64,000 bases of DNA from a virus (taxonomy: Duplodnaviria; Heunggongvirae; Uroviricota; Caudoviricetes). Made by a program: the position numbers and the translations under genes. This document shows, in pieces, positions 2,349 to 28,298 of the stretch; position 1 is the first letter of the stretch, and every line of letters begins with the position of its first letter. The stretch lies in the IMG/VR virus record IMGVR_UViG_2541047680_000004. One strand, given 5' to 3'. The notes beneath the pieces were generated by a model that was given only the letters and a program-made list of their open reading frames with translations, did no database searches and was not told where the DNA came from.

Positions 2349-2435
2349 TGGCGGAGAGTAATGGAATCGAACCATCATCGTTTGCACAATGGGACGGTTT
2401 TCAAGACCGCTTGAGCACCATGCTCCCTACTCTCC
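2349..2435 (-). tRNA. tRNA-Ser (anticodon UGA), class II
   Basis: Hand-folded: acceptor GGAGAGT/ACTCTCC, anticodon loop CTTGAAA, long variable arm, T-loop GGTTCGATTCC, discriminator G + encoded CCA; 87 nt. Confidence 0.75.
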
Positions 2436-2755
2436 AGCTATTGTGATGGTCGGTGCTGAACTCCGACACAGGGTTGTAGCAAGCCCCGCAAAGCGCGCAC
2501 TACTGTAGTTGCGGCACATCAGCCTGTGCATTCATCACAATGGTAAGATCACTACCTTTCGACCAGTCATTGTGCACATGAACGACGATTAACCGTAATG
2601 ATATTATCGTTGTGTTGTGAAGCCAGATGCTTATCTTCTGGTTGCTTCAAAGAGCTGCACTTCCTCACAACGGTAAGAGCACTGGTCTGACTCTATCGAT
2701 TTACGGCCTTGTGGGTCAGTATCGCCGATTCGCCCAATGCTCTTACCTGTTGTGT

Positions 2756-2831
2756 TGGTGCCGGTTAACGGACTTGAACCGCTGGCCATTCGCTTACAAA
2801 ACGACTGCTCTACCAACTGAGCTAAACCGGC
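2756..2831 (-). tRNA. tRNA-Thr (anticodon UGU)
   Basis: Acceptor GCCGGTT/AACCGGC, D-arm GCTCAGTTGGTAGAGC, anticodon loop TTTGTAA, T-loop GGTTCAAGTCC, encoded CCA; one mismatch at base of anticodon stem. Confidence 0.75.
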
Positions 2832-2835
2832 AATT

Positions 2836-2922
2836 TGGTGGGGAGTGATGGAGTCGAACCACCCGAGTCGCCATGACAGTAGATTTACAGTCTACACCGC
2901 TACCTCTACGGACTAACTCCCC
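2836..2922 (-). tRNA. tRNA-Tyr (anticodon GUA), class II
   Basis: Acceptor GGGGAGT/ACTCCCC, anticodon stem GTAGA/TCTAC with loop CTGTAAA, long variable arm, T-loop GGTTCGACTCC, encoded CCA; sequence differs from the E. coli host tRNA-Tyr. Confidence 0.8.
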
Positions 2923-2927
2923 TAAAT

Positions 2928-3002
2928 TGGCGATGGTGGGTGGATTCGAACCACCGACCAGTTGGTTAACAGCCAACTGCTCTACCGCTGAGCTACACCA
3001 TC
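2928..3002 (-). tRNA. tRNA-Asn (anticodon GUU)
   Basis: Perfect cloverleaf: acceptor GATGGTG/CACCATC, D-arm GCTCAGCGGTAGAGC, anticodon stem GTTGG/CCAAC with loop CTGTTAA, T-arm GGTGGTTCGAATCCACC, encoded CCA; differs from host tRNA-Asn. Confidence 0.85.
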
Positions 3003-3780
3003 AATTCAGCACTGCCAGTATTTATTACTCAACAGTGCCAATCGCGACGGTTTAGTTTCTGCCAGGAAACGCACCGCTACTTGCACTTTTCGTTAGTGCC
3101 AGACGCTTTCGACTTCGCTCAATAGTAGAAGGCAAAATCTTTAAGTAGATGATGTTTCTGAGGACAGCACCTACTTTGTAATTTATACAATGTGATGTAT
3201 GGAATCATTTGTTGTGAAAACAGGCACCAATGGCAACAGTGGTTAAACCTACACAACAATCCCGTCTTCACAACGTTGAGGCCACTACTCCGATTGAATG
3301 TTTGCCCAACATGTTACATATCAACGCTCGCCGGTATCTCTGTGAATAGAACCTTAGAATTGATAAAAATGTAATGGCCTCAACGTTGTGTGCTGGCTAA
3401 CCATACCAGCCGGGCTACGTCGCCGCTTTTTAACCCAGTATAAACGACATAATTGAACAAAATGACGTAACAGGATGGGCGGTCAGTGGCTAAGAATCCG
3501 GGAGTCATATGGAGTTGAAAATATACCAACCGCCCATTCTGTTACTTCATCGGAGGGAACATGAATGTTCCCTCCTGCGTTCTGCAATCACACTCGCTCA
3601 GTGTGTCCCATTTCGGTAACGAGGCTGGAAACTGACCTCGCTGGTGTTTGGCTTATTAGGCTACTGCCAGATAGACTTCTTCGTTTGCACTTGTATTTAA
3701 GTTCAAACAGTCGCGTCTCAACGAAAACAAAGTCATCTTATACACAAAAGATAAGTAAGTAAATACTTATCATTGTATTT

Positions 3781-4591: not shown

Positions 4592-5914
4592 TCATTCTTT
4601 ATCTCCGATTCGATCTTCTGTATCGCGTAAGCAACGCGGCCATTTCAGTCGTGGGTGGCGTAAGCTGCCATCCGGCGTTTTCTCGTGACAATGAACCTCG
4701 ACAATACGACCACGGTACTTCTCTTTGTTGTTCCAGATCTCGTCCAGATATTTATGCTTAATGCCGCTCGCACGAACAATCACACCGTTTTCAAGGCGAA
4801 TAACAATTTTTCCAAGCGTGTTGGCAAAACCAGAGTCCGGGTCGCCCGGCTCAAAGTCGATAATTTCACCATCTTCTGAATCTTCGTCTTTTAACTTCCA
4901 CCAGCTGCGGGTACGTTTAAACTCGTAAACAGAGTTCGGATCTTTGCCCATCTCCCCTTCTTCGTTATCGTCCAGGCGTTTCATGAAGCGTTCGATGAAA
5001 TCTTCGTGGCTATGGATGATATAGAACGGATGCAGGTGAATGTCTTGTGCGTAGCCTTCACTGCGATCGTTTTTAAACAACGCCACCAGCATAGCCAGGC
5101 GCTCTTTCAGCTTCATACCTGTCTTTGCATACTCTTTGGATTTAGCCTGTGCCCGCCATTCCGGTAGGAAGAAGTCGAAAACATGATAAATAGCGCCAAT
5201 TGCCTGCACGTTCTTTTTGCGCAATGCAGATACGGACTGGTTAAATGAACCGGCTGTTCCTTCACCATCGAAGAAGATGTGTTTGTGGCCTGAAAGTTTG
5301 CCTAATTCGAGCATTGCTGGCTTTAGGTGATCGAGAGACGTGATTGGATTACCAGTACGAGAAAGGAAGTTAACCTCTTCCTCGTCAACAATAACCTCGC
5401 AAATTACTCGCAAACCATCGAGCTTAAGACTGCCAATCATCGGCCATTTTGCTTTAGGATTTGGCTTGAAGGGGTATTTGTCGCCTTTTTCTTTATACGG
5501 TGACGCCAGCTGCACCTCGAATTTCGGAATGGGATTTTCAAAAACCTTGTTGCATAGGCTAATCCCAACACCTGCTTTCGGGTCTTTTAAGAGGAAACGA
5601 CGGAACACGTCCTGCCCATCGGCGCACATTGACGCCACGATAGACTCAACAGCTGCTATTGCTGCGTTCCCCGTTAGCTCGCGAGAGGCCAGCTTATTCA
5701 GTATATCAATGGCTTTTTCGTCACTTGGGACGGACTCACTAAGCGGCTCTGCCACTTTGTATTTCTTTACCCCAAAACGGATGAAAGGGTTGAGCATCAA
5801 TGAAACCATGCTTTGTTCAAAGTCATCCATGTTGGCCAATGCCTCTTTTTTTGCATTGGTTCCCATAGCTTTCATTTCGTCCAGCTTATGCTTAAGTGCG
5901 ATCAACTTTTTCAT
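4592..5914 (-). CDS. ATP-dependent DNA ligase
   Basis: Adenylation motif I KxDG(x)R present as SLKLDGLRV; 440 aa, size and layout typical of phage ATP-dependent ligases. Confidence 0.8.
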   Translation of the reverse strand: MKKLIALKHKLDEMKAMGTNAKKEALANMDDFEQSMVSLMLNPFIRFGVKKYKVAEPLSESVPSDEKAIDILNKLASRELTGNAAIAAVESIVASMCADGQDVFRRFLLKDPKAGVGISLCNKVFENPIPKFEVQLASPYKEKGDKYPFKPNPKAKWPMIGSLKLDGLRVICEVIVDEEEVNFLSRTGNPITSLDHLKPAMLELGKLSGHKHIFFDGEGTAGSFNQSVSALRKKNVQAIGAIYHVFDFFLPEWRAQAKSKEYAKTGMKLKERLAMLVALFKNDRSEGYAQDIHLHPFYIIHSHEDFIERFMKRLDDNEEGEMGKDPNSVYEFKRTRSWWKLKDEDSEDGEIIDFEPGDPDSGFANTLGKIVIRLENGVIVRASGIKHKYLDEIWNNKEKYRGRIVEVHCHEKTPDGSLRHPRLKWPRCLRDTEDRIGDKE

Positions 5915-6381
5915 TGTTGTTTTGCCTCCATATGTTGATCGATTTGCTCATGTGTTTCTTTTGTTGTTTCTTCAAGCAACGCCGCATACACGTCAGTGAT
6001 CGCTGTTTGTGATGTGGCGCTCTTCTTAACCATGCTATTAATCGTTACACTGTCACGTTTTCGTTTTATAGTTCTGGCTTGTTTATTCCGTTCTTCAACC
6101 TCCTTAATGAGTGCGGTCATATCTTCAAAATACAGAGATTCTCCTTTACGAATCTCTTCAACCATCATTTTTAACGCCTTGCATTTGCCTGCTTTAATAG
6201 CGGTTGCGCACGACTGGAAAGAAGTTCGAGGAAGACGGTTTTCTTTGAAGGCAAGAATGGTGTGCTGGCAAACGGAATAGCTGCAATATGCCGACTCACC
6301 GTTTATCTTTACTTCCTCACAACGAAGTGAATAACTGTTATTTCCTGAAATAGAAGGGATTTTTGACAAATCAGCTTTCAC
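5911..6381 (-). CDS. hypothetical protein (Cys-rich N-terminus)
   Basis: 156-aa ORF overlapping ligase start (operon arrangement). Confidence 0.45.
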   Translation of the reverse strand: MKADLSKIPSISGNNSYSLRCEEVKINGESAYCSYSVCQHTILAFKENRLPRTSFQSCATAIKAGKCKALKMMVEEIRKGESLYFEDMTALIKEVEERNKQARTIKRKRDSVTINSMVKKSATSQTAITDVYAALLEETTKETHEQIDQHMEAKQQ

Positions 6382-6448: not shown

Positions 6449-7225
6449 TTACCAACTTCCCCAGCTAATCATCTTGCGCTGATCGCTTTCTAAGCGATAA
6501 GGGGCAAGAAGCTCTGTGACATGATTGGTGGCGTATGATTTAGCCTCTTGCTTAATCATCGGTAATTCGTTAGCAATCCTGACCATCTTCCCAGCAAATT
6601 CCGCCATTACGCCATCACAAGCCTTCCCCGCATCAACAACGATATGCACAAGATCCAACTGGCTTTTGCACATATCCCAAAGAGACGCGTATTCACTCTC
6701 TCTGATTACATTTACGGCACTATTAGCCCCTTTATTAATCAAAACTTCCAACAGATTTTTCGGGGTAACGAAATCTGCTTTCAGAGATAATGTCTTTTCA
6801 CCACTTATCGAACGCAAGTACTCTTCGTAGTTATTCTTCATCAAACCGCTGCTGCGCATTGCTAGAACTGCTTCTTGAATGGCCGCTTCAATAGTTTCGT
6901 CGTTTGAAAGACAAAAAACGGTATTTGTGTAGATCACTCTGCCATCAAGCCATGCTCCAACCTGCACTTTAAGACTGAGCGGGTTTTCTTTGCTAATAAA
7001 AACAACTAATGCAGAACGCCGTGCACAAGAAGGTTCGCCCCATACGTGTAACTCAACTTTCAGATAAGGCAACCCTGGTAGCGGGATCTCGTCCATACGA
7101 GCAGCGATATGATTCATTGCTGTATTGACGACCTTTCCAATGATGTCTAGTCGACTGCCCTCGCTGATTTCTAAACCTGTTTTATCAATGATGTCACAGG
7201 CCAATTTCTGAATTTCGTCTTTCAT
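6449..7225 (-). CDS. hypothetical protein
   Basis: 258-aa ORF with upstream conserved intergenic motif. Confidence 0.45.
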   Translation of the reverse strand: MKDEIQKLACDIIDKTGLEISEGSRLDIIGKVVNTAMNHIAARMDEIPLPGLPYLKVELHVWGEPSCARRSALVVFISKENPLSLKVQVGAWLDGRVIYTNTVFCLSNDETIEAAIQEAVLAMRSSGLMKNNYEEYLRSISGEKTLSLKADFVTPKNLLEVLINKGANSAVNVIRESEYASLWDMCKSQLDLVHIVVDAGKACDGVMAEFAGKMVRIANELPMIKQEAKSYATNHVTELLAPYRLESDQRKMISWGSW

Positions 7226-7350
7226 ACCAACTCCTAGCTAACAGATGAAAGTATTCTTACAAAAAACTAAGTATGTATCTACTTATCATTTTAGGCGCAA
7301 TAGTTCCCTATACGAAGATGCCGGGCTTATAGTCTGCCCGGCATTCACCA

Positions 7351-7764
7351 TTAATGAGCTACAGCCTCACTGTTGCACATCTTTCTGTAGACCTGCTTAT
7401 AACGCTGTAAGTCATGAGGATCATTAGGTGCCAACGACTTCGATAGGATTTTGTATACCACCCCTTTCGAAAACATGCCCTTTGGCTTCATTTCGAGTTC
7501 AACAACATATGAGTGATAGCCCACGTATGCACCAAAGCCATTTTTGGCGTTCAATTCTCCGCACACAAAGCCTGTCACACTCCCATCGTCATGATCAGTC
7601 CTGACAAACTTATCTTTCCTAAACATCACCGACGTGGGATCTTTCATATCATCCGCAATTGCTTGTTGGCCCAGAGCAATAGCCTTCTCGTCTGTAGGCT
7701 TACACCCCACTAAAGCAAACAAAGACAATAAAGCTCCTGTTAAAATCAGCTTATTTTTGCTCAT
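7351..7764 (-). CDS. putative lipoprotein
   Basis: Signal peptide with lipobox LSLFALVG-C near N-terminus; 137 aa. Confidence 0.55.
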   Translation of the reverse strand: MSKNKLILTGALLSLFALVGCKPTDEKAIALGQQAIADDMKDPTSVMFRKDKFVRTDHDDGSVTGFVCGELNAKNGFGAYVGYHSYVVELEMKPKGMFSKGVVYKILSKSLAPNDPHDLQRYKQVYRKMCNSEAVAH

Positions 7765-7996
7765 GTTGGCTTCCCTTTATTTATATTTATCGCAGGTATT
7801 AGTTAATCAAAACACGAGCAGTGCCACAATAATTAAATGGCGTACTATTTCTTATGGTTATTAGTTTCCCAGTAACTTTACCGACCATAAACTAAATCAA
7901 CAAAGCTGACATATTAACTAAATTTAAGTACCCTTTTTCGCACACTTGACGCTTGCCGCGTCTAAACTGTTCATCCTATATCAACAGAAAAAAAAC

Positions 7997-9142
7997 ATGA
8001 AATACATAAAATCTTCATCGTTGCTGGCATTAACTTTGCTTTTTAACTCTGGATTCGTTAACGCAGACAATAAACAAACGCTGATAGAAGCCGCTACCGC
8101 AGGGGATACCGCAGCACAAAGTGAGTTAGGTACAAATTATTTTGATGGTGTCAATGGTTTTGATAAGGATGTAGTTGAGGCCAAGAAGTGGATTGATCTA
8201 GCTGCAGAAAAGGGAGATAAAGTAGCATATTATGCACTTGGAGTTATGTACACATTTGGCGAGGGTGTAGATAAAGACCTAAATAAAGCTGTTGAGTACT
8301 ACAAACTTGCGGGGGATGCTCGTGAAGGTAGAGCCTACAACAATCTTGGTGCTATTTATCAAAAGGGGATGCTTGGTAAAGTAGATCATGCACTCGCCAT
8401 TAAATACTTCAAACTAGCCTCTGATGCCGGGTATGTTAAAGCAACTTCAGTTCTTGGGGCGTATTACCAATATGGTAAAGGCGTTAAAAAGAATTATAAA
8501 AAGGCTTTTACTTATTACAAAAAGGCGGCAGACCAAGGCAGTTCAGAAGCTATGATAGGATTAGGAATACTATACGATGATGGGTTAGGCGTTAAACGCA
8601 ATGATGCAGAAGCAGTTAAGTGGTATAAAAAGGCAGCGGAACTTGGAAACGCCGACGCCATAACCAATCTTGGCATTATGTATGAGAATGGGGAAGGTGT
8701 AAAAAAGGACTATAAAAAAGCAGCCGACCTTTATCAGACTGCTTGCGATAAAGGAGAAAAAAGAGGCTGCGATTACATTGCAGAACTGAAAGAAAGCGGC
8801 AAATATCGAGCGCCGGCTTCCAAAGCCAAAACAAAATCCGCCACCCAGCGACTTATTGCTAAATCCATTGATAAGGGCGTTAACGCTACATTTACCTGGC
8901 AGGGTGATGATGCTACCTTCACCGCTAATGATGGCAAAGTTGACTGCACCTTCCTGAAGGATTTTTCAGAGAAAGGAGGCAATCTGGCTACCTCGTTTGT
9001 TTGCACCGATAACGTTCAAATCATCCTGAAGCAATTCAGAGATACCAAGAATGCCTACCTCGCGGTAATGACTGACAACTTCAATACAGAAGTTAAATCA
9101 TTTTCGGTCAATGTGTATGTGACTAATACTGGTTCAAACTAG
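7997..9142 (+). CDS. secreted Sel1-repeat (TPR-like) protein
   Basis: Signal peptide MKYIKSSSLLALTLLFNSGFVNA followed by about 7 Sel1-type repeats (A..YxLGxxYxxGxGVxKDxxKAxxWYKKAA pattern); plus strand among minus-strand phage genes. Confidence 0.65.
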   Translation: MKYIKSSSLLALTLLFNSGFVNADNKQTLIEAATAGDTAAQSELGTNYFDGVNGFDKDVVEAKKWIDLAAEKGDKVAYYALGVMYTFGEGVDKDLNKAVEYYKLAGDAREGRAYNNLGAIYQKGMLGKVDHALAIKYFKLASDAGYVKATSVLGAYYQYGKGVKKNYKKAFTYYKKAADQGSSEAMIGLGILYDDGLGVKRNDAEAVKWYKKAAELGNADAITNLGIMYENGEGVKKDYKKAADLYQTACDKGEKRGCDYIAELKESGKYRAPASKAKTKSATQRLIAKSIDKGVNATFTWQGDDATFTANDGKVDCTFLKDFSEKGGNLATSFVCTDNVQIILKQFRDTKNAYLAVMTDNFNTEVKSFSVNVYVTNTGSN

Positions 9143-10387
9143 TGCTGCAATGCCTTTCACCTTGCTTAAGAGTTCAAGCTGTCGTGAATAAGGTTTTGCG
9201 CAATAGTAGGCTTTGATAATCTGCCCCGGTGTCGCATCGCCGGGGTCGAGTCCTTCCTCGCCCAAACACGCAACTTTGACATTAAGACCAATACTTGTGA
9301 GTCGCCTGGCTGCGGCCATAGTGTTGCGTATAGCTTGCTTTTCACTATCCCACATCATGATCACATTACGTAATCCACGCGCCTTGAGCGTCAGGAACGC
9401 GCCCAGCTGATCTTCTGCATCCTGAGTGGTGTTGCCAGATAGATGCATCCCGAACGTTCCTATTGGTTCCACGTAATCACGTAATGTTTCTTCGTCAAAA
9501 ATAGCTCGTTTAACTCCCATAACATCGAACGCCCCCTCACAGACAACTACAGTCTGTTTGCCAACTGCATTATGGCCGTTGTAGAGAAACTTACCTGAAG
9601 CTGGAAGCTGCATAGGAAAGAGGTAGCGGCGGTCTGCTGTACCGGTAATGTCTCGTCCCTGAAATGTCTTCATTACCCCATCCAGATCGTAAACCGGTAT
9701 CAGTACTCGCATATCGAATATCTGTCCTTTTACCTGATCTGTATACGGATCTACATAAGCGTGCTTGCCTTCGACGCAGTATCGTAGGTCAAAATACTTT
9801 GCCATTTCAGGCGATATGTTTCGTTCAACCAGATAGTCTGGAAGACGGCCATCTATAGGAAGTTCGTAATGACGAGGGAGTGCAAGTGGTCCCTCTAACT
9901 CGACTGTGCTTGTAAGCACTATCTCTTCTTTCTTTGGTGCCCACCCCTGGGAAAGAAGAGCGTTCTGCACATATTCCTCGAACTGTCGTCGTGATTTACC
10001 GCTGTAGTACTTGAGGAAGACCAGCTTATTGAACTGAATCTCTTCGGGATGATCACCAGCGAAGCATTTGCCGACGCCACTGGTCAGATTGAAATATACC
10101 TTCCAGTTGGAGCTGCCGCATACCGGACACTCCTTGATATTCACTTCACGACCGCGAGCACTCACGCCTCCACGTCGATAAACGATACCTTCAGTGTCCA
10201 ACCATTGTTCAAAATCTAATTCGGTAATTAGCTCTTTCAGCTCGCTCACGATAATTCCACTTTTAACAGGCAATATTGTGACCAACCTAAATGTTGATAT
10301 AACATAAAGGCTCATGTGTTTTTCTTTTGTGGTTTGGCAAAAGAAAAGTTGTTTCACCAATGAATCAAGCGTGGAGGTGTTCTCCAC
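9134..10387 (-). CDS. DNA primase (zinc-binding domain + TOPRIM), T7 gp4 primase-like
   Basis: CPVCGSS...C zinc ribbon and TOPRIM-like VVCEGAFD motif; immediately downstream of the helicase gene. Confidence 0.7.
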   Translation of the reverse strand: MENTSTLDSLVKQLFFCQTTKEKHMSLYVISTFRLVTILPVKSGIIVSELKELITELDFEQWLDTEGIVYRRGGVSARGREVNIKECPVCGSSNWKVYFNLTSGVGKCFAGDHPEEIQFNKLVFLKYYSGKSRRQFEEYVQNALLSQGWAPKKEEIVLTSTVELEGPLALPRHYELPIDGRLPDYLVERNISPEMAKYFDLRYCVEGKHAYVDPYTDQVKGQIFDMRVLIPVYDLDGVMKTFQGRDITGTADRRYLFPMQLPASGKFLYNGHNAVGKQTVVVCEGAFDVMGVKRAIFDEETLRDYVEPIGTFGMHLSGNTTQDAEDQLGAFLTLKARGLRNVIMMWDSEKQAIRNTMAAARRLTSIGLNVKVACLGEEGLDPGDATPGQIIKAYYCAKPYSRQLELLSKVKGIAALV

Positions 10388-10396
10388 GCTTATTTT

Positions 10397-19177: not shown

Positions 19178-22100
19178 TTATTCTTTAGGTGAATTTAACT
19201 TCGTTTCAAGCTCCTCAACCCTTTTGGTCAATTGCTGAATATGATGAATGAGTGGTACAACCAAACGCTCATACATCACTCCTTCAGCGACCATACCATT
19301 TGAGGAAATATCTCCTGGAGAATCATTATTTGTTGGTTCACGCCAATGGACATATTGCGGGGCAATCTCACCAACCTCTTCAGCAATAAGGCCGTAATAC
19401 CCCCAATCCTTTCGGTCACCTCGACAAATTGAACGATACCAAACAGGTCTTAATGACAAAAGTTCATCAGCATATCGATCTTGTAATGTTTCAATATCCT
19501 TTTTATAGCGCCTTGAAGATGTTGAACGCCAAACTGTATTGATACCTGGGTTTGGATCAATGTACATATTGGCACCGCTAGTAGTTGTGCCAATATCCCA
19601 TATAGCAAACCCTCCACTACCGCCTGATTTGACAACCAGTGTTTCAGCAATAATATCCAGGTTGCCACTATAGCCTGTCAGTGATGATCTGCTTGCATAG
19701 GAACTTAGAAGGTTTGTTACCTCTGTTTTCGTATAAGCATTAAGGTTAGCCGCAGTCAAAGTAATATCGGCAGAGCCATCAAACGCCACACCAGCAATTT
19801 TCCTTGCTGTCTGCAATTTTGTGGCTGTTGCGGCATTACCAGTAGTATTCTGATTACCGGTTGTATTCACACCAGGGATTGAATCCTTAGCGGTATATAC
19901 CTGCGCCCACGCTGACCATGCCGCATCAGTGGTATCTCTTCTGGAGCGAATGAAAACCGGCGCATGTGCACCGCTCGTACCACTCCAGCCAATAAGCAAC
20001 TCGCCCTCACCAGCAGCACTCGCACCTTTCATGTGCAATACGTTGCCATACGTGGTCGGGTAGCTATTGTTGTACGCCTCGTACATTTGAATGCCAGCAG
20101 TACCTTGAGTAGAACCGCTTAAAGCCGTAACTCGACCACGAGAAACCAATGTATTAATATTGATATCACCTGAACCATCAAACTTAACACCATTGATGTT
20201 TCTCGCTGTTTGCAACTTCGTAGCTGTTGAAGCATTGCCATTCAAGCTACCATTTACGCCACCAGTAACATTTAGTCCATTACCAATAGACACAACACCG
20301 CTGCTATTATTAATTATAATCGGTCGCAAACTGTTCCATGAACCTAACGTATCTCCTGATGCTGTTAGCATGAAATATGTGCTGCCGCCGTCATTACGGA
20401 TAAAGAACCCGTAGTTACCGTAAGCAATGCGGAAACCATTTGCATATTTTGAAACGATCTCACCAGAAGACGTCAACCCTCCAGATAATGTGCCACCTGA
20501 AAGCGGTAATGCTCCTACATCAGAAGCTGTTGGTTTGTTTCTAGTGTTATAAGAACGACGCCAGCCTGGCGCATAATCACTCCCATTGTACACATAAATA
20601 AATTCCGCATTATTAACACCACCATGACCTGATGTTGTTGCCGTTGTAACACGAATAGTGTAGTGGCTTGTTGCCTTATTACTAAACACCTCAATCACGG
20701 AACCAGATAGATCGATCCTACCGCAACCAGTGTCGTCTATATAATTATTGTTGGCGTAAGTCCATGAGCACCGTGCGATCCAATGTTTGTTTGTAAATGC
20801 CCCCTGATTGTTTAGCCAAGTTATAAATTGAGCAGTCGTAAATGCCGTTCCGTTACCACTATTTAACCATCCAGCGGCAGCGGTTGGTGCGTTTATATCA
20901 GCCGGCTGAGGCATAAATCCAGTCGTGTAAACCTGCTCCCAACCACTTTCAAAACCATAGCCATCTCTTGAGGAACGGTAGAACAGACCACCATTTTTAT
21001 AGTGAGCTTTAATTTGAAGCGTACGGCAACTACCTACACCGGTATAAAAGTTGGCAAGAATATAACTGGCGCCTGTTCTAGTTACATTGTAAGCACCAGA
21101 TTCAGCATTCCACGGCACGCCACCATCAGCATCCGCATATGACCCTGTTGCCCTTCTTGCGAAAGCGGCAACATGCGCAGCGGTTAAAGTGATATCAGTA
21201 GAACCATCAAATGGAACACCGGATATTTTTCTTGCAGTCTGAAGTTTTGTAGCAGTTGCAGCATTACCAGTGGTGTTCTGATTACCCGTAGTGTTTACAC
21301 CTGGAAGGTTGATATTTGCAGAACCGTCGAAACCAACTCCACCGATAGATCTTGCCGTCTGCAATTTCGTTGCTGTACTTGCATTACCATTTAATGTTCC
21401 GGTGATCCCACCAGTAACAGACAACGGACCTGAAACTGTTCCTCCGGTTGTTGGCAGTGCTCCAATATCTAACGGCGTCGGTTTCTGATGTGTGCTATAC
21501 ATCGTATAAACAACACCATCGGTAACGCTGGAAGGCTTACTCGCTGAATATGTTGGCGATGTATAAACAGAAACTGACGCATTTGCAGTACAATCCCAAT
21601 GGATATTTACACTCGTCGCATAATTGCCAATTTCAACGTAAATATCATATGTATCGCCGGATGTGTTGATCCAGGCGAAATTCGTTAATCCGACAGCTGT
21701 ACGCTTCCACAAAGCACCTGTAATCCCTTTGGGGTTTCCATTGCCTGCTCGTAGAACCAGTTCTGAAATGCCTGCCTGATGTGGGGAGCCGACGTTGTAA
21801 CCAGCGCCACCAATCAATGCGATGTAAACGATGGAACTCGCTTGTGGCATTGTAACAGTAGCCAGTTTGAACCACCCGGCCCCGCCAGAGAAAGACATCG
21901 TTATTGAATTTAAAGTACCAATATCTTTCGGCGTTAATGTGATATCCGCAGTCAGTGCTTTCCCGTTAATTTTTCGGTTAGATGGCACCCTGCTGTTCGC
22001 ATTGTCATTGACTACTTTAACTGCTTTTGGCGTTGCGGCCAGCGATTCACTGGTGCTGTCGACAGCACTGCTAAGTTTCACAACACCTTTAGTTGTAAGG

Positions 22101-23476
22101 CTTGCGTCTTCCATCGCAACTGCACCGGCAATCTCTTCAGCACGATCAGCAGCAGCTTCCGCACGGGTCGCAGCGGATTCAGCAGCAGTTTTGCTCTGAG
22201 ATGCTGCCGTCGCACTGCCTGCCGCCTCTGTTGCTTTCGTGGATGCCGTCGTGGCGCTGCCCTTCGCTGCTGACGCCTGTCTGGTCGCCTCATCTTTTGA
22301 AGCAGACGCAGATGATGCCGATGACGCTGCCGAACTGGCGGACGATGCGGCTGCCGTTTTTGAGGATTCTGCACGGGTTTCCGACGCTTTCGCGTTCGTT
22401 TCGGATGTCTTCGCTGCGGAAGCAGACCTCGCTGCTGCGCTGGCCTGTTCAGTGGCTTCGCCAGCCTTCGTTGTGGCTGTTGAAGCAGATGATGCGGCAC
22501 TTTCTGCCGATTTTCCGGCGGCGGTGGCACTGGCTGAGGCCTGCCCGGCACTTGTTGACGCGGCACTGGCAGACGACGCAGCCGCTGTTTTTGAGCCTGC
22601 CGCAGCCGAGGCGCTCTGTCCCGCTGCCGTTTCAGAAGACCTGGCGTTCGTCTCGGACGTTTTTGCCGCCTTCGCGGAATTTCCTGCCGCCGTTGCCGAG
22701 GAAGCGGCATTACTGGCGCTCGAGGCTGCGCTCGTTTCTGATGATTTCGCTGCCTCTTTTGAGGCCGCCGCATCCCGGGCTGAGGTGGCAGCTTCTGACG
22801 CCTTCGTGGTCGCGGTGGATGCAGAAGTGGCTGCAGATTTTTGTGACGCTGCAGCATTCGTTTCAGACGTTTTCGCGGCACCGGCACTGGTGGCCGCCGC
22901 GCTTTTTGAGGACTCTGCAGCGGATGCACTTTGAGACGCTTGAGAGGCTTTTTCTCCAGCGGTATTGGCGCTTTCTGCTGCTGCGGCAGCACTGGCCGCC
23001 GCCTCACGAGCTTTGTCGCCAGCAGCATCAATCGCGTCAGTGTTATTTTTATACCACTCAACGTTTTCGTTGTGCTCGTTGACGATCTGCATTAGCGGCT
23101 TAACGGTCACTTCTGTACCGTCTTCACGCTCGATTGTCACCTCATCCAGAGCAGTCAACCAACTGCGCATGGACTTGGAATCAGCCGACATACGCGACAT
23201 TAGTGCTGTAAAGCGCGCGCTAAACTGTGTTAAGTCGCCTTCATAGGTCGTAATGATTCGGCACGGAACTTCAGACTGAGTTTCGCCGGTATAGGGTTCT
23301 GAGAGAACAATGTTCGTATCACTGGTTACGCGCTTGATCTCATACAGCTTATTGTCGGGGCCAATGACGATCATCCCCGGCAACACACCATTAGCTGTTA
23401 CGTTCCAGGCTGTCCCTGCCCCAACCAGAGTATTGCTGCCCTGTGTAAATGTGATAGTACCTTCCCTGTACCACAT
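19178..23476 (-). CDS. long (side / L-shaped) tail fiber with C-terminal S74 intramolecular chaperone domain
   Basis: 1432 aa; Ala/Ser-rich stalk; four GNAATATKLQTAR-type fibre repeats; C-terminal auto-processing chaperone-like segment. Confidence 0.8.
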   Translation of the reverse strand: MWYREGTITFTQGSNTLVGAGTAWNVTANGVLPGMIVIGPDNKLYEIKRVTSDTNIVLSEPYTGETQSEVPCRIITTYEGDLTQFSARFTALMSRMSADSKSMRSWLTALDEVTIEREDGTEVTVKPLMQIVNEHNENVEWYKNNTDAIDAAGDKAREAAASAAAAAESANTAGEKASQASQSASAAESSKSAAATSAGAAKTSETNAAASQKSAATSASTATTKASEAATSARDAAASKEAAKSSETSAASSASNAASSATAAGNSAKAAKTSETNARSSETAAGQSASAAAGSKTAAASSASAASTSAGQASASATAAGKSAESAASSASTATTKAGEATEQASAAARSASAAKTSETNAKASETRAESSKTAAASSASSAASSASSASASKDEATRQASAAKGSATTASTKATEAAGSATAASQSKTAAESAATRAEAAADRAEEIAGAVAMEDASLTTKGVVKLSSAVDSTSESLAATPKAVKVVNDNANSRVPSNRKINGKALTADITLTPKDIGTLNSITMSFSGGAGWFKLATVTMPQASSIVYIALIGGAGYNVGSPHQAGISELVLRAGNGNPKGITGALWKRTAVGLTNFAWINTSGDTYDIYVEIGNYATSVNIHWDCTANASVSVYTSPTYSASKPSSVTDGVVYTMYSTHQKPTPLDIGALPTTGGTVSGPLSVTGGITGTLNGNASTATKLQTARSIGGVGFDGSANINLPGVNTTGNQNTTGNAATATKLQTARKISGVPFDGSTDITLTAAHVAAFARRATGSYADADGGVPWNAESGAYNVTRTGASYILANFYTGVGSCRTLQIKAHYKNGGLFYRSSRDGYGFESGWEQVYTTGFMPQPADINAPTAAAGWLNSGNGTAFTTAQFITWLNNQGAFTNKHWIARCSWTYANNNYIDDTGCGRIDLSGSVIEVFSNKATSHYTIRVTTATTSGHGGVNNAEFIYVYNGSDYAPGWRRSYNTRNKPTASDVGALPLSGGTLSGGLTSSGEIVSKYANGFRIAYGNYGFFIRNDGGSTYFMLTASGDTLGSWNSLRPIIINNSSGVVSIGNGLNVTGGVNGSLNGNASTATKLQTARNINGVKFDGSGDININTLVSRGRVTALSGSTQGTAGIQMYEAYNNSYPTTYGNVLHMKGASAAGEGELLIGWSGTSGAHAPVFIRSRRDTTDAAWSAWAQVYTAKDSIPGVNTTGNQNTTGNAATATKLQTARKIAGVAFDGSADITLTAANLNAYTKTEVTNLLSSYASRSSLTGYSGNLDIIAETLVVKSGGSGGFAIWDIGTTTSGANMYIDPNPGINTVWRSTSSRRYKKDIETLQDRYADELLSLRPVWYRSICRGDRKDWGYYGLIAEEVGEIAPQYVHWREPTNNDSPGDISSNGMVAEGVMYERLVVPLIHHIQQLTKRVEELETKLNSPKE

Positions 23477-23567: not shown

Positions 23568-26500
23568 TTACAGAAGGCCAATTCTTACTCGTAGGACGTT
23601 GTTATCGTCATAAACGTCAATCCGCTGACCATTTATGACCAGTCGCCCATTACCCCCGCTATTACCGTTGATCTCAAGCGTTCCATTTTTGCCGAACCGC
23701 CATCCAGATCTACCGCTAACAAAATTGGTAGATTGCAGATCGCCTACTTTTGCATTGGTGATTGTGCCATCCTTGATATACGCACCATTCATATAGGCGA
23801 TACTGTTTTCGATAACAAATGGCGTGGTGATCTTCCCGTTAACAGAGTTGACCAAACCAAACCTGTCAGCCTGCACCAAAAACTGAGAAAGGCCAGTGGT
23901 GTCGATACCAAGCGCAATACCAGCAACATACTTCTGCCCTCCGCTCGTTGAAGTTTCCATTTTCAACGTCCACGCGGTTGACACTTTTTTGTTGGTATCA
24001 GCAATAGCTGTTGCCTGCTGTTGAATTGTCGCGGTATTTCCATCCACCTCTGCTTTCAGAGTATCGATTCGCCCACTCAGAGCATTATCTGCCTGCGTTC
24101 TCGCTGTCGTTTCAGTTGTTACCGCCGCGGAAATGTTGGCTGCCGTTTGAGACTCTAAGTTTGTGATTTGAGTCGCCAATGCAGCATCTTGCTCTGTACG
24201 CGTTTTCGTTTCGGTTGCTACAGCCGCTTTAATATCCTCTTTGTATTGAGAGGTCAGCTTGGTGATCTGAGACGACAACGCCGAGTCAGCATCAGTTCGA
24301 GCCTGCGTTTCAACTGCAACGGCCGCACTAATATCTTTCGCTGTCTGTGCTTTTAAACTTGAAACCTCTTTTGTTAAAGCGGTATCACCATCAGCACGAG
24401 CCGTTGTTTCTCTGGCAAGAGATGCCTCGAGATCATTAGCTTTTGCTGTAAGAGACGAAATCTGAGTGGACAATGCACTATCGGCATCAGTCCTTGCCTT
24501 TGTCTCTACAGCAACCGCTGCGGCAATATCAGTTCCGGTTTGTGCTCGCAGGCTGTTAATTTCTCGTGAGAGCGCCTGGTCAGCACTTGCTCTGGCCTCC
24601 TGCTCCTGAGTGATGGCAGCGGATATATCACCGTCAACCTTTGACTGAAGCTGGTTTATTAGTTTGGCTAACGCAGAGTCCCCGCTTGCTCGGGCCTCCT
24701 GCTCACTACGTATTGCAGCAGAAATATCATCATCAACCTTTGCCTGAAGTTGGGTGATCTGGCTTGCCAGAGCCGAATCTTCCGTTGCTCGGGCTTCTTG
24801 CTCTTCCTTAATAGCTGCGACGATATCGTTGCTTACTTTCGACTCAAGCTGAGTGATCTGTGTCGTCAGAGCTTCATCGGCAGATGTGCGAGCCTCCTGC
24901 TCTGTACTAATCGCCGCGCTGATATCTCCTTCAAACTTAGATTGCAGCTGAGTGACACGCTTTGCCAACGCTTCATCGCCATCGGCACGAGCGGTGGACT
25001 CTTCCAGAATACTGGCCTTAATGTCTTCGCCAATTTCTACGCGAATTTCCTCAACCTTCGTGGCCATTGCAGACATATCATCAGCAAAGGTTTTCTGTGT
25101 TGTTGCGATCTTCGCGTTATTGACCATCTGCTTGTGCTGGTCTTCATCTTGACGAAGAGCCAGGTCAATATTTGTTTTGGCTAACGCCTCAATGTTCGTA
25201 GTCAGTTCTGCACTGGCACGATCGACCTCTGCAACCGTCTTTTTCATTTCTTCAACGGCAGCGGAGCTTTCCTCTACCGTTGACTGCAACACTTCCAGTT
25301 GTTTAGCGTTTGCAGCATCGCCTTCAACACGAGCCTCGCTTTCCTTAGCAATAAGAGCCGCCGCTTCATCTCTTGCAGCCTTTATTGCCTCGACTGTATT
25401 AGCGAGAGCTTTATCGTGTTCAGATACGGTGTTTTCGATTTCAACAATTGCAGCATCAGTGGCATCAATTTTTTCAAACGCTTCATTGACCTTGTCGATC
25501 GTTGCCGAAACCTCACCTTTAAGCTCGGTTTGTGCGTTCTCCAAAGCATCGCTACGCTCGTTGAATTTTATTTCAAAACCCGCGAGGTTATCGCTGAACT
25601 GCTTATCTAATTCAGCTATATCTTCCTTAACGTCGTTTACCGACCCCTCCAAAGATTCGACGCTCTGGTTGATATGCTCATTTAACTCGTCAACTGCTTC
25701 TTGAGAGGCTTTGCTGTTGATGTCCTCAAGCAGAGCCTGACCAAGCTCGGAAGATGTAATTTTGCCAGCCAGGAACGACAGTACATCGCGAGTTGTCGCC
25801 TCTGTACCCAAGTTTGAGTTCGGAGGGCTTAACATACCTCGCTTGTTCGATGCTCGAACCCAGTAATACCACGTTTCGCTATCCCCAAGACCAGCATGTG
25901 TAAAGGTGGTGCTTGCAGACTCTGCGATCAGTTTCGCCGTATCCAGATTGTTGGTCTGGGATGCGTAAACATTAATGTGATCAAGGTCTACCGAATCTGG
26001 ATTAACCCAATTCAGTATCACATTACGATAGTCTCCAACGGCCGTTAATGACGTTGGGGCATCCGGCGGTGTCATTGTGCCCAACACCTGATAAACGGTA
26101 CTGATAATCTCTGTTTTTTTACCGTTGAATGAAACCGCATACAGTTGGAAGTCGTAGCGTCCATTCTCCGCGACATTAACGATTTCGTATTGCTCTTCGG
26201 TTACACGCGCCGATTGCCAGTTCGATACATTGTTTTCATCAGAACGTCGCCAACTGATCCAATACTCTGGAGATTTTCCTTCCCATGTTGCAGTCAGTTT
26301 TACTGACAGGTTGCCCGGGCTTGAGAGATAAGTCCCTTCAGTGATTTGCAGATTAGATGGCTTGGAGTAAGTTGGGTCCAATACCGTCGTATTCTGCGGG
26401 ATCAGCGTTGCACCATTGTCGATTGCCTCATATTTAGACGGATTGTTCTCAACAGCGGTGATGTCAAAGCTACCCGGCGTTTCCCCCTGCGCGATGTTAA

Positions 26501-28298
26501 CGATGCGAACGCGCATAGGTTCGAGATCTGGTTCTGTAATTGTCCAGACACCGTTCAAAACAGGCGTTTCCGCTGACGACAGGGCTTTTGAAAACGTAAC
26601 CTTTGTTATGTTTTCGCCAGTTTCAAGAACATCGCGTTCAACGATTTTGCCTTCCTGATTCAATATCCGAATAAAGCTGCCGCTTTTAGCTAACGACACA
26701 GGCGCATCGAGAGTGATGCTGTTTTTGGTAAACTCCACAATTCGACCGGAGTTACGTTTACCTGCACGATATTTGTTCTGAATCAGAACGGTTTCACCGG
26801 GCATCAGAAATGAGGCGTCTAAGCCGGCAGTAAATGTAATTACATCCGACTCCATTCTGGCGGTATACAAAAGCCACAAACCAACTCGGTGAGCCTGGCC
26901 TCGGCTTGTACATCCAAATGCTACGACTTCTGTTTTACGCTCACCATAACGGCGCATTGCGTCCTGATCTTCAACGTACTCGATGTTTTGCTTATAACCG
27001 TCCTCCTTGTTGTTGTAGGTTACGAGCGCAACGGATGGGCGATCTTTACGCGCAGAACCTTTATAGGTAAACAGTCCATCTTTGACGTTGGAGTTGGTAA
27101 ACATCATTACCGGATCTGATGGGCTATCCTGCATGATGTTAACCATGCCACCAGCCCAAAACACCATGCCGCGGAATGCACCGGCAATATCCTGAATTAA
27201 TCGGTATGCGTCTTGTCGACTGGTGATCTGCGTATTGATTGCAAAGCGTTTCTCTTTACCCCCAAAGCCATCATCGACCTCTTCGTCACAATATCGACCA
27301 ATCTGGTAGAGCTGGCCGAGGTCAATCATGGATTCCGACACAAATTGCCCAAGACCATACCGAGTATTGGTAAGCAAATCGTAGAGAATCCACGCAGGGT
27401 TTGAAGAAGACAACAGCTTAAAAGTACCGTCCCATACGCCGACATAAGTATTGGTGTATTCGTTGTAGTTTGACGGTACTCGGATTTTGATACCGCGCAC
27501 CAAATACGAACGGGAAGGCATTGTGCTACCAAACTGCTCTGAATTGACCTTCAAGCCAACAAGAGCAGAGTTAGGGTAGTTCATTGGCGTGTCGACAATC
27601 TCACCGATGGAATCAACCCATGTGTCGTTGTAGAGGTACTGGCTACTATTATCATCTGTAAGACGAATCACCCTAACCTTGTATGCACGACCAGGCTTAG
27701 GCAGTTTCAGCTCATAGCTACGGTAATACACGCCGGTTTTCTTTGCCGTTAGCGTGATATCAACGCTTTTCTCACCTTCTGCCACTACATCAGAAAATGT
27801 TGCGTCTGCGTTGGCGATCTGGAATTTGTACTTCACCGTAGTGCCATTTGTATCGCCAGAGCTTTTATCAACGCTACGTAAAGAGGGGAATTTCATGATG
27901 ACACGAACGCGATCAGCTTCATCGTTATCGATTGAAACCGTAACGTCGTGTGTTTTTTTAAGCTGAATATTTACGGACTTAGGCGTTTCGACAAAATCAA
28001 AACCAGCCATTGGCGTCTGATCTTGTGAGCCGTCACGAAAATCCCATGTAATACCGCTGAAGTTGGAAGAGCCATCTTCATTCAAGATCGGTAAATCGTC
28101 GATGAAGATCGACTTTGCGCCATTTACCAGGCCACCGATAACCCCCTCGCCAAGAAGGTCGAGGATGGCTGCCATAGCACGAGAATTGACAGTATCATCA
28201 GCTTCAACCGGGGTACGGCTGGAGCTTTTACTTTTCTTGCCACCAGCACCGGCAATAAGAAGCGGTAATTTTTTCTTCTTGAACTGTTCCATGTCCAA
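23568..28298 (-). CDS. central tail fiber / host specificity protein (lambda J-like) with expanded coiled-coil repeat insert
   Basis: 1576 aa; blocks matching lambda J (PNSALVGLKVNSEQFGS, FGCTSRGQAHRVGLWL, C-terminal VAGIALGID...FLV region); about 14 tandem 28-aa repeats. Confidence 0.85.
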   Translation of the reverse strand: MDMEQFKKKKLPLLIAGAGGKKSKSSSRTPVEADDTVNSRAMAAILDLLGEGVIGGLVNGAKSIFIDDLPILNEDGSSNFSGITWDFRDGSQDQTPMAGFDFVETPKSVNIQLKKTHDVTVSIDNDEADRVRVIMKFPSLRSVDKSSGDTNGTTVKYKFQIANADATFSDVVAEGEKSVDITLTAKKTGVYYRSYELKLPKPGRAYKVRVIRLTDDNSSQYLYNDTWVDSIGEIVDTPMNYPNSALVGLKVNSEQFGSTMPSRSYLVRGIKIRVPSNYNEYTNTYVGVWDGTFKLLSSSNPAWILYDLLTNTRYGLGQFVSESMIDLGQLYQIGRYCDEEVDDGFGGKEKRFAINTQITSRQDAYRLIQDIAGAFRGMVFWAGGMVNIMQDSPSDPVMMFTNSNVKDGLFTYKGSARKDRPSVALVTYNNKEDGYKQNIEYVEDQDAMRRYGERKTEVVAFGCTSRGQAHRVGLWLLYTARMESDVITFTAGLDASFLMPGETVLIQNKYRAGKRNSGRIVEFTKNSITLDAPVSLAKSGSFIRILNQEGKIVERDVLETGENITKVTFSKALSSAETPVLNGVWTITEPDLEPMRVRIVNIAQGETPGSFDITAVENNPSKYEAIDNGATLIPQNTTVLDPTYSKPSNLQITEGTYLSSPGNLSVKLTATWEGKSPEYWISWRRSDENNVSNWQSARVTEEQYEIVNVAENGRYDFQLYAVSFNGKKTEIISTVYQVLGTMTPPDAPTSLTAVGDYRNVILNWVNPDSVDLDHINVYASQTNNLDTAKLIAESASTTFTHAGLGDSETWYYWVRASNKRGMLSPPNSNLGTEATTRDVLSFLAGKITSSELGQALLEDINSKASQEAVDELNEHINQSVESLEGSVNDVKEDIAELDKQFSDNLAGFEIKFNERSDALENAQTELKGEVSATIDKVNEAFEKIDATDAAIVEIENTVSEHDKALANTVEAIKAARDEAAALIAKESEARVEGDAANAKQLEVLQSTVEESSAAVEEMKKTVAEVDRASAELTTNIEALAKTNIDLALRQDEDQHKQMVNNAKIATTQKTFADDMSAMATKVEEIRVEIGEDIKASILEESTARADGDEALAKRVTQLQSKFEGDISAAISTEQEARTSADEALTTQITQLESKVSNDIVAAIKEEQEARATEDSALASQITQLQAKVDDDISAAIRSEQEARASGDSALAKLINQLQSKVDGDISAAITQEQEARASADQALSREINSLRAQTGTDIAAAVAVETKARTDADSALSTQISSLTAKANDLEASLARETTARADGDTALTKEVSSLKAQTAKDISAAVAVETQARTDADSALSSQITKLTSQYKEDIKAAVATETKTRTEQDAALATQITNLESQTAANISAAVTTETTARTQADNALSGRIDTLKAEVDGNTATIQQQATAIADTNKKVSTAWTLKMETSTSGGQKYVAGIALGIDTTGLSQFLVQADRFGLVNSVNGKITTPFVIENSIAYMNGAYIKDGTITNAKVGDLQSTNFVSGRSGWRFGKNGTLEINGNSGGNGRLVINGQRIDVYDDNNVLRVRIGLL

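Follow-up and report, generated by a model that had tools for sequence, protein, structure and literature searches.

Why would a gene for a protein that appears to be exported from the cell lie, in opposite orientation, among the replication genes of a phage-plasmid? The question is raised by a plus-strand gene, here called the Sel1-barrel gene, in the IMG/VR virus record IMGVR_UViG_2541047680_000004 (Caudoviricetes), of which a stretch of 64,000 nt was analysed and is referred to below as the window. The window belongs to an E. coli SSU5-like phage-plasmid that is 95-99% identical to the phages Cyrano and CMS-2020a and to many plasmids of ~110 kb (e.g. pECOH89). An initial annotation of the DNA letters had described the product as a secreted protein with about seven Sel1 repeats and a distinct C-terminal domain, and had taken the gene for lysogenic-conversion cargo rather than part of phage replication. 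Our computational analysis shows a two-module protein, in which an exchangeable Sel1 array is joined to a constant β-barrel, encoded by a mobile and selectively maintained cargo gene; export of the product is probable from its N-terminus and its cysteines.

The gene itself is already annotated, in RefSeq as 'tetratricopeptide/Sel1 repeat protein' and as phrog_8741, and is therefore uncharacterised rather than undiscovered. It is a real accessory gene, maintained by selection, and as prophage cargo it is of an ordinary kind. Both exported Sel1 proteins and prophage morons, that is, independent cargo genes in temperate phages (PMC3594210), are well known; what is new is the fusion of the repeats to an orphan β-barrel and the swapping of alleles.

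A Sel1 array joined to a β-barrel

The open reading frame (ORF) extends from 7946 to 9142, and the ATG at 7997, which is also the start used by RefSeq in near-identical plasmids, gives a protein of 381 aa that matches phrog_8741, a family without functional annotation, over its full length (positions 1-380 of 380, E 4e-211). The Pfam family Sel1 (PF08238), which is defined by tandem repeats of 36-44 residues, was matched at E 1.1e-53, with 178 bits against a gathering cut-off of 30.7 bits, and six repeats were called. An AlphaFold2 model of the full-length protein, for which nine homologues served as input (mean predicted local distance difference test score, pLDDT, 81.8), places 14 helices in aa 23-266, at pLDDT above 90, as seven hairpins of antiparallel helices that stack into a solenoid, and the estimate of about seven repeats in the initial annotation is therefore correct. 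The separate C-terminal domain that it had recognised proved real as well: eight β-strands are modelled in aa 285-376, and the domain modelled alone from 14 sequences reached a pLDDT of 87.2 and a predicted template modelling score (pTM) of 0.77. The remainder of the model is disordered at aa 1-21, the signal-peptide region (pLDDT below 50), and of low confidence in the linker around aa 273-282. A search of NCBIfam yielded sub-threshold repeat matches alone (MerG, MotX, AlgK and ExoR). Five short homologues (P0121, P0122, P0123, P0017 and P0042; 97-260 aa) were considered as natural barrel-only forms and rejected, as none has a signal peptide and all seem to stem from truncated gene calls or fragmentary pseudogenes.

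The N-terminus of the protein, MKYIKSSSLLALTLLFNSGFVNA followed by DNK, was judged by heuristics (charge, hydrophobic core and the residues at -3 and -1) and by comparison with homologues. A net charge of +2 precedes a hydrophobic core of 10 residues with a mean Kyte-Doolittle value of 2.1, and V-N-A occupies positions -3 to -1, such that the segment divides into MKYIK, SSSLLALTLLF and NSGFVNA ahead of D, in keeping with a Sec signal peptide cleaved by signal peptidase I (SPase I). This layout is kept in eleven homologues of divergent sequence. The protein does not have a lipobox, its first cysteine being residue 250. Cys250, Cys258, Cys317 and Cys336 are invariant among nine aligned full-length proteins, the first two lying in the last Sel1 repeat and the latter two being invariant across the 14 barrel sequences too, and this set fits two disulfides formed outside the cytoplasm, in an oxidising compartment. 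We infer that the protein is exported by Sec across the inner membrane, with the periplasm as the default destination, where it would carry two disulfides. Of the claim that the product bears a signal peptide and is secreted, the signal peptide thus stands by heuristics and by the layout of the homologues, and support for secretion extends only to passage through the inner membrane.

While the solenoid is closest to LpnE, HcpC and Oxalobacter Sel1 proteins, the barrel has few relatives. An exhaustive search of 1.84 billion representative proteins with a hidden Markov model of the barrel recovered approximately eight genuine clusters, in addition to repeat artefacts (e.g. P0125), a word-indexed sequence search found only three proteins, and five loci were found in 185,579 species genomes; no match was obtained among PDB sequences. 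By fold, the barrel matches small soluble up-and-down barrels, including the Cap15 barrel and the immunity protein BtaiB, with similar structural scores also for avidins, designed barrels and 8-stranded outer-membrane proteins, and its best matches among predicted viral structures are stand-alone coliphage proteins of ~110 aa, one of which is annotated as 'putative lysozyme inhibitor'. As the fold is generic, these matches are leads and not assignments, and the modelled barrel resembles small periplasmic inhibitor and immunity barrels in its fold. The likeness to MliC/PliC (PF09864) is likewise one of fold only, with no sequence match at E up to 10 for the 14 barrels. SxSGAxY and YxxxTKG, the lysozyme-binding loop motifs of MliC/PliC, are absent from the barrel. 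Moreover, MliC/PliC, Brucella PhiA and Bacteroides BtaiB are stand-alone proteins or lipoproteins, whereas the barrel studied here is fused to a Sel1 array.

A barrel of eight strands could also be thought of as an outer-membrane anchor that tethers or displays the Sel1 array, in the manner of a miniature of the exporters BcsC, PgaA and PelB, which combine tetratricopeptide repeats with a barrel. We rejected an outer-membrane barrel and regard this arrangement as very improbable, since the domain has only ~97 residues and five to six of its eight strands are just 6-8 residues long, too short for a membrane, the C-terminal aromatic residue of a β-signal is missing from a variable tail, the cysteine pair is invariant, and the best structural matches are soluble barrels.

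A mobile and selectively maintained cargo gene

In phage Cyrano, 29 unrelated bp stand in place of window positions 7287-9148, and the flanks align at 89-97% identity (blastn). The primase-helicase backbone was found in 253 of 5426 complete E. coli genomes, about a quarter of which (65 of the 253) carry DNA of the segment, nearly whole in 55 and with all copies on plasmids. In PLSDB, the barrel domain is encoded by 91 plasmids (Escherichia 60, Enterobacter 22, Citrobacter 8), and among the matches listed all overlap or abut a primase-region gene, which some records annotate merely as hypothetical. Homologues occupy this site in Enterobacter and Citrobacter phage-plasmids too. The Enterobacter plasmid pG6809-1 has an identical convergent 9-nt overlap with the primase gene and no lipoprotein gene, and a second E. 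coli type without the lipoprotein gene is represented by four loci (L007, L022, L031 and L032). The E. coli plasmid pLR-46_1 (L021) retains the 3' ends of both genes only, owing to an internal deletion of 1571 bp (its positions 2874-3741 correspond to window 7167-7432 fused to 9004-9598), which indicates that the Sel1-less state can be derived and that some elements lost the genes secondarily. Between a 258-aa hypothetical gene and the primase gene there is thus a slot of variable content, in which at least five states occur. The initial annotation had the gene inserted, in opposite orientation, between a lipoprotein gene and the primase gene, with which it overlaps at the 3' end. This arrangement is as described, with 9 nt (9134-9142) shared between the converging 3' ends; the variable unit, however, includes the lipoprotein gene, and as the genes were lost by deletion in at least one element, pLR-46_1, insertion is not the only direction of change.

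Full-length homologues that share the signal peptide, repeats and barrel at 46-62% identity are found on quite different elements. In a lambdoid prophage (L004, L005) the homologue lies downstream of tail-fibre genes, and in Leclercia (L013) a homologue split into a pseudogene adjoins prophage tail genes. A P2-like prophage or myophage (L040, an IMG/VR contig, 5056-6297) encodes a 413-aa homologue whose gene is flanked by those for the tail tube (FII) and the tail assembly chaperone (E), so that this cargo gene has another insertion slot, unrelated to the first. Two short contigs (L009, L010), probably of a small plasmid, have a homologue adjoining a plasmid-type replicase gene, a Pantoea megaplasmid carries one as well (L003, L012), and in Pseudenterobacter (L002) the homologue lies among contact-dependent inhibition (CDI) toxin fragments (Fil_haemagg/PT-VENN) together with an insertion sequence (IS) element. 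On the E. whittamii chromosome (L011, 5554-9015), an intact gene of 420 aa is situated between an IS3-family transposase remnant and decayed pieces of a phage-plasmid primase gene, in an islet inserted between yciB and yciA/tonB that is a captured piece of a phage-plasmid. An all-against-all BLAST of the neighbours at 13 loci revealed no partner gene common across contexts, which suggests that the gene acts alone and speaks against an obligate two-gene system.

The gene is hence both present and absent among close relatives (the Cyrano indel, 65 of 253 in E. coli) and present on unrelated backbones (lambdoid, P2-like and Leclercia prophages and SSU5-like elements of three genera). It occupies the corresponding site of Enterobacter and Citrobacter elements and occurs in other prophages and in the chromosomal islet, which identifies it as mobile cargo and not replication machinery, and that it is an accessory cargo gene, or moron, of the phage-plasmid is well supported. 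Its recurrence across SSU5-like elements and two other prophage types, lambdoid and P2-like, implies that it probably benefits lysogens.

Given its position, the gene might alternatively be an accessory of phage-plasmid replication or control, either through the protein itself or through antisense transcription into the primase gene that would damp the lytic replication genes in the plasmid state. Elements of E. coli, Enterobacter and Citrobacter all keep the convergent 9-nt overlap, and a terminator scan found none straight after the Sel1-barrel gene and none before 10367; the first terminator-like site on its strand, at 10367-10391, lies past the primase start, and its transcript could therefore cross the whole primase gene antisense. 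Against this explanation stand the export signal and the periplasm-type disulfide cysteines, the absence of the gene from approximately three quarters of the E. coli elements that have the backbone, and the presence of the family in lambdoid and P2-like prophages without any primase gene. In the E. whittamii chromosome, the gene is intact while the adjacent primase gene has decayed, the opposite of what a replication accessory would predict, and the protein sequence is under purifying selection. We thus consider a role in replication hardly credible; the homologies did not point to a conserved replication accessory function, and the initial view of the gene as cargo is well supported.

Purifying selection was evident from pairwise Nei-Gojobori comparisons of the window allele with five other alleles, in which the ratio of nonsynonymous to synonymous substitution rates (dN/dS) was 0.09-0.23 for the repeat array, 0.04-0.08 for the barrel and 0.04 for the lipoprotein gene, with 0.01-0.18 for the primase, helicase and ligase genes. 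The low ratios indicate that the gene is functional and constrained, and positive selection was not detected by these pairwise comparisons, dN/dS being well below 1 everywhere but in the signal peptide, whose 23 codons offer too few sites to interpret. Among E. coli elements, dS of the barrel is ~0.1, equal to that of the backbone (~0.1), whereas dS of the repeat array rises to 1.5-2.4 against two allele types of 417 and 335 aa (L018 and L007). Saturated divergence in the array next to flanks at ~0.1 shows that the array was replaced by recombination with old, divergent alleles, and the breakpoint lies near the last repeat or the linker. The same pattern is seen in 24 viral contigs, where the barrels of E. 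coli phage-plasmids are 94-100% identical and the arrays fall at 49, 59, 91-92 or 98-100%. When E. coli elements are compared with those of Enterobacter, identity is 54% over the whole Sel1-barrel protein and 89-92% for ligase, primase and helicase.

A possible protective role in the periplasm

What might such a protein do for its carrier? We propose that it may bind or neutralise an agent in the periplasm and thereby protect the lysogen, with specificity residing in the array, a reading that we hold tentatively and would place somewhat short of an even chance. In this model, the gene is a self-contained moron of the SSU5-like phage-plasmid, and its product would be exported by Sec into the cell envelope, with the periplasm as the most likely location. 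The α-solenoid of seven Sel1 repeats, which is exchanged between alleles by recombination, would serve as a protein-binding scaffold, and the highly conserved, presumably disulfide-bearing barrel of eight strands is the constant module. The protein would act stoichiometrically, the array determining which ligand is bound and the barrel contributing an inhibition or anchoring that stays constant, such that the lysogen, and hence the resident element, would be protected from an envelope-acting attacker, for instance the penetration machinery of a superinfecting phage or a contact-delivered toxin. Both the protective role and its target are speculative.

Circumstantial support comes from the existence of Sel1-repeat immunity proteins, from the likeness of the barrel to inhibitor and immunity folds, from the location of the gene at a place typical of the exclusion or fitness genes of prophages, from its pairing in the window with a gene for a phage lipoprotein, some phage lipoproteins being known exclusion factors, and from one chromosomal homologue, that of Pseudenterobacter, which lies inside an orphan CDI toxin cluster. 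Cor and Llp are known lipoprotein exclusion factors of phages, and the envelope-protein morons bor/lom of lambda, cor of phi80/N15, llp of T5 and sp of T4 change the envelope of the lysogen or exclude phages. These classical envelope morons are, like the gene in the window, small and independent cargo of temperate phages with exported products, often near tail genes; the window gene differs in that it has no homology to them and in its unusual position in the replication module, where it converges on and overlaps the primase gene.

Several findings weigh against a protective binder. There is no cognate toxin gene beside the Sel1-barrel gene in the window, and the PADLOC library of defence systems gave a single, spurious match (22 bits, one repeat against PtuA, with no accepted stretch). 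The barrel matched no Pfam family at E up to 10 with any of the 14 sequences. A consensus promoter scan of the divergent intergenic region (7765-7996) found no plus-strand promoter and none that was convincing, and no canonical Shine-Dalgarno sequence precedes the ATG at 7997. The swapping of alleles is recombinational, with no demonstration of positive selection at individual sites. Lastly, among relatives of solved structure the closest is EsiB, which interacts with the host and is not an immunity protein.

This last point leads to the main rival, in which the protein would be a host-interaction or virulence factor of the EsiB/Hcp/LpnE type that reaches the surface or the medium (e.g. by the type II secretion system or in vesicles), binds a host protein such as secretory IgA and modulates colonisation or immunity, as in classical lysogenic conversion. 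EsiB (c5321) of uropathogenic E. coli (PDB 4bwr) is 34% identical to the window protein over the repeats and binds secretory IgA (PMC3735183), and interactions with host cells are known for further Sel1-repeat proteins of bacteria (PMC3851747, PMC10868440). Although carrier strains were isolated from human blood, urine and stool and from livestock, carriers also come from soil, wastewater and Pantoea, a largely plant- and environment-associated genus, with no visible pathotype bias. Similarity between Sel1 proteins is mostly repeat consensus, and EsiB, HcpC (1ouv) and LpnE (6deh) have no C-terminal β-barrel, yet the barrel is the most conserved part of the protein studied here. The disulfide-forming cysteine pair that marks each repeat of Hcp proteins is present in the last repeat only (C250/C258). 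There is, in addition, no evident route across the outer membrane. The window gene further differs from those of EsiB, HcpC and LpnE in being carried by phage-plasmids and prophages. A host-interaction factor of this type therefore seems rather unlikely to us.

A narrower form of the periplasmic binder is an orphan or 'acquired' immunity protein that guards the host from neighbouring bacteria by neutralising an effector of a type VI secretion system (T6SS) or of CDI. Klebsiella Sel1E is a Sel1-repeat T6SS immunity protein that acts against VgrG4 (PMC7108748), and both Sel1E and the Pseudomonas Sel1 proteins PA5086-5088, in which the same scaffold neutralises an incoming toxin, appeared among the sequence or structure matches. 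The resemblance of the barrel to BtaiB, the existence of several swapped repeat-array alleles and the position of the Pseudenterobacter homologue between Fil_haemagg/PT-VENN toxin gene fragments are supportive of such a function. However, Sel1E and PA5086-5088 lie beside their own effectors in T6SS loci and lack a barrel, whereas the Sel1-barrel gene has no effector or toxin gene beside it, either in the window or at any of the other phage and phage-plasmid loci. The similarity to PA5086-5088 (E about 1e-11) is far weaker than that to generic Sel1 proteins, and the Pseudenterobacter cluster, the only toxin-associated context, also contains an IS element and other accessory genes, so that the association may be incidental. 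Immunity against a T6SS or CDI effector of neighbouring bacteria is accordingly an explanation to which we give a low probability.

Should the broader idea of a protective periplasmic binder be right, Sel1-barrel proteins could form an unrecognised family of envelope-protection factors of mobile elements, in which a constant barrel is combined with an exchangeable Sel1 specificity array and the arrays are traded against particular phages or toxins, a generalisation that we regard as doubtful. Among E. coli from clinical sources and livestock, SSU5-like phage-plasmids occur commonly, in some cases with resistance genes on board. Hardly any study has dealt with their other cargo, and our search turned up no paper that connects these elements with Sel1 proteins. 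The Sel1-barrel gene is among the few accessory genes that recur in SSU5-like, lambdoid and P2-like elements. If its benefit were periplasmic exclusion or immunity, it would represent a modular design, with a swappable repeat array on a constant barrel, and would give a function to an orphan domain, whereas another Sel1 adaptor of unclear role would be routine prophage cargo.

The locus and its neighbours

The coordinates of the gene, its domains and the adjoining features are collected in Table 1.

Table 1. Features of the Sel1-barrel locus, in window coordinates (a dot denotes no strand)
Feature	Position	Strand	Details
Sel1-barrel gene	7997..9142	+	381 aa plus stop; ORF call, Pfam, phrog_8741 match
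Sec (SPase I) signal peptide, predicted	7997..8065	+	aa 1-23, cleavage after VNA; heuristics, conservation in homologues; no lipobox
Seven Sel1-like repeats, α-solenoid	8066..8800	+	aa 24-268; Pfam, model; swapped between alleles
Lys/Ser/Ala-rich linker	8801..8848	+	aa 269-284; variable in sequence; low model confidence
8-stranded β-barrel domain, conserved	8849..9139	+	aa 285-381; invariant Cys317 and Cys336; no Pfam family
Variable segment	7287..9148	.	1862 bp, lipoprotein gene and Sel1-barrel gene; blastn against phage Cyrano (L001)
Lipoprotein gene	7351..7764	-	137 aa, lipobox L-V-G-C at aa 18-21, Lys at +2; matches phrog_2320, function unannotated
GC-rich hairpin GCCGGGC ... GCCCGGC	7320..7342	.	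just past the lipoprotein stop; read from sequence
Divergent intergenic region	7765..7996	.	232 bp, AT-rich; must contain the promoters of both genes
DNA primase gene	9134..10249	-	371 aa as annotated in relatives; convergent with the Sel1-barrel gene; ORF 9134-10387

The variable segment has a GC content of 41.5%, compared with 46.2% for the whole window, and a search of its flanks for direct or inverted repeats that might mark the boundaries of a mobile element gave short chance matches only and no transposon-like repeats. A search of Rfam over 7000-9600 returned a sub-threshold snoRNA artefact only. The opposite orientation of the Sel1-barrel gene implies a promoter of its own, and the last 60 nt of the divergent intergenic region are conserved among E. 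coli alleles. On the primase side, the minus-strand ORF has primase (DnaG_N) and Toprim matches, both just under the Pfam curated cut-offs, and is labelled 'DNA primase' in related records; genes for an ATP-dependent ligase and a DnaB-like helicase flank the region (Pfam). Between the helicase stop and the primase start, at 10367-10391 on the plus strand, lies a strong hairpin with an 11-bp stem, AAGCGTGGAGG...CTCCACGCTT, followed by ATTTTTT.

The lipoprotein gene accompanies the Sel1-barrel gene in only some elements, being missing from L007, L016, L022 and L031. Its product, a candidate exclusion factor, matched no Pfam or NCBIfam family, and only four close homologues were found. Homologues occur in the Salmonella phages SEN4 and SEN5, and phage proteins with SPOR or peptidoglycan-binding annotations are weakly similar to parts of it. 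The hairpin beyond its stop might be a terminator, but it has no T-run and was not called by the terminator scan. The 258-aa protein that borders the variable slot on the other side (6449-7225, minus strand, phrog_4248) is unusually divergent between elements, with 79-80% identity among E. coli alleles and ~40% to Enterobacter, compared with 89-99% for the adjoining replication genes.

Elsewhere in the window, four tRNA genes (Ser-TGA, Thr-TGT, Tyr-GTA and Asn-GTT) lie at 2349-3002 on the minus strand, upstream of the replication module. At 19178-23476 (minus strand), and especially at 22000-23000, the local GC content reaches 0.60 with a strong AT skew inside a tail-fibre-like ORF of 1432 aa, which is due to a long low-complexity stretch rich in Ala, Ser and Thr and not to foreign DNA. 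A 99-bp tandem repeat (24586-24803; 2.2 copies, 77% matches) inside the 1576-aa tail-tip (GpJ-like) ORF at 23568-28298 encodes repeated coiled-coil-like 'SAAI..EQEAR' segments.

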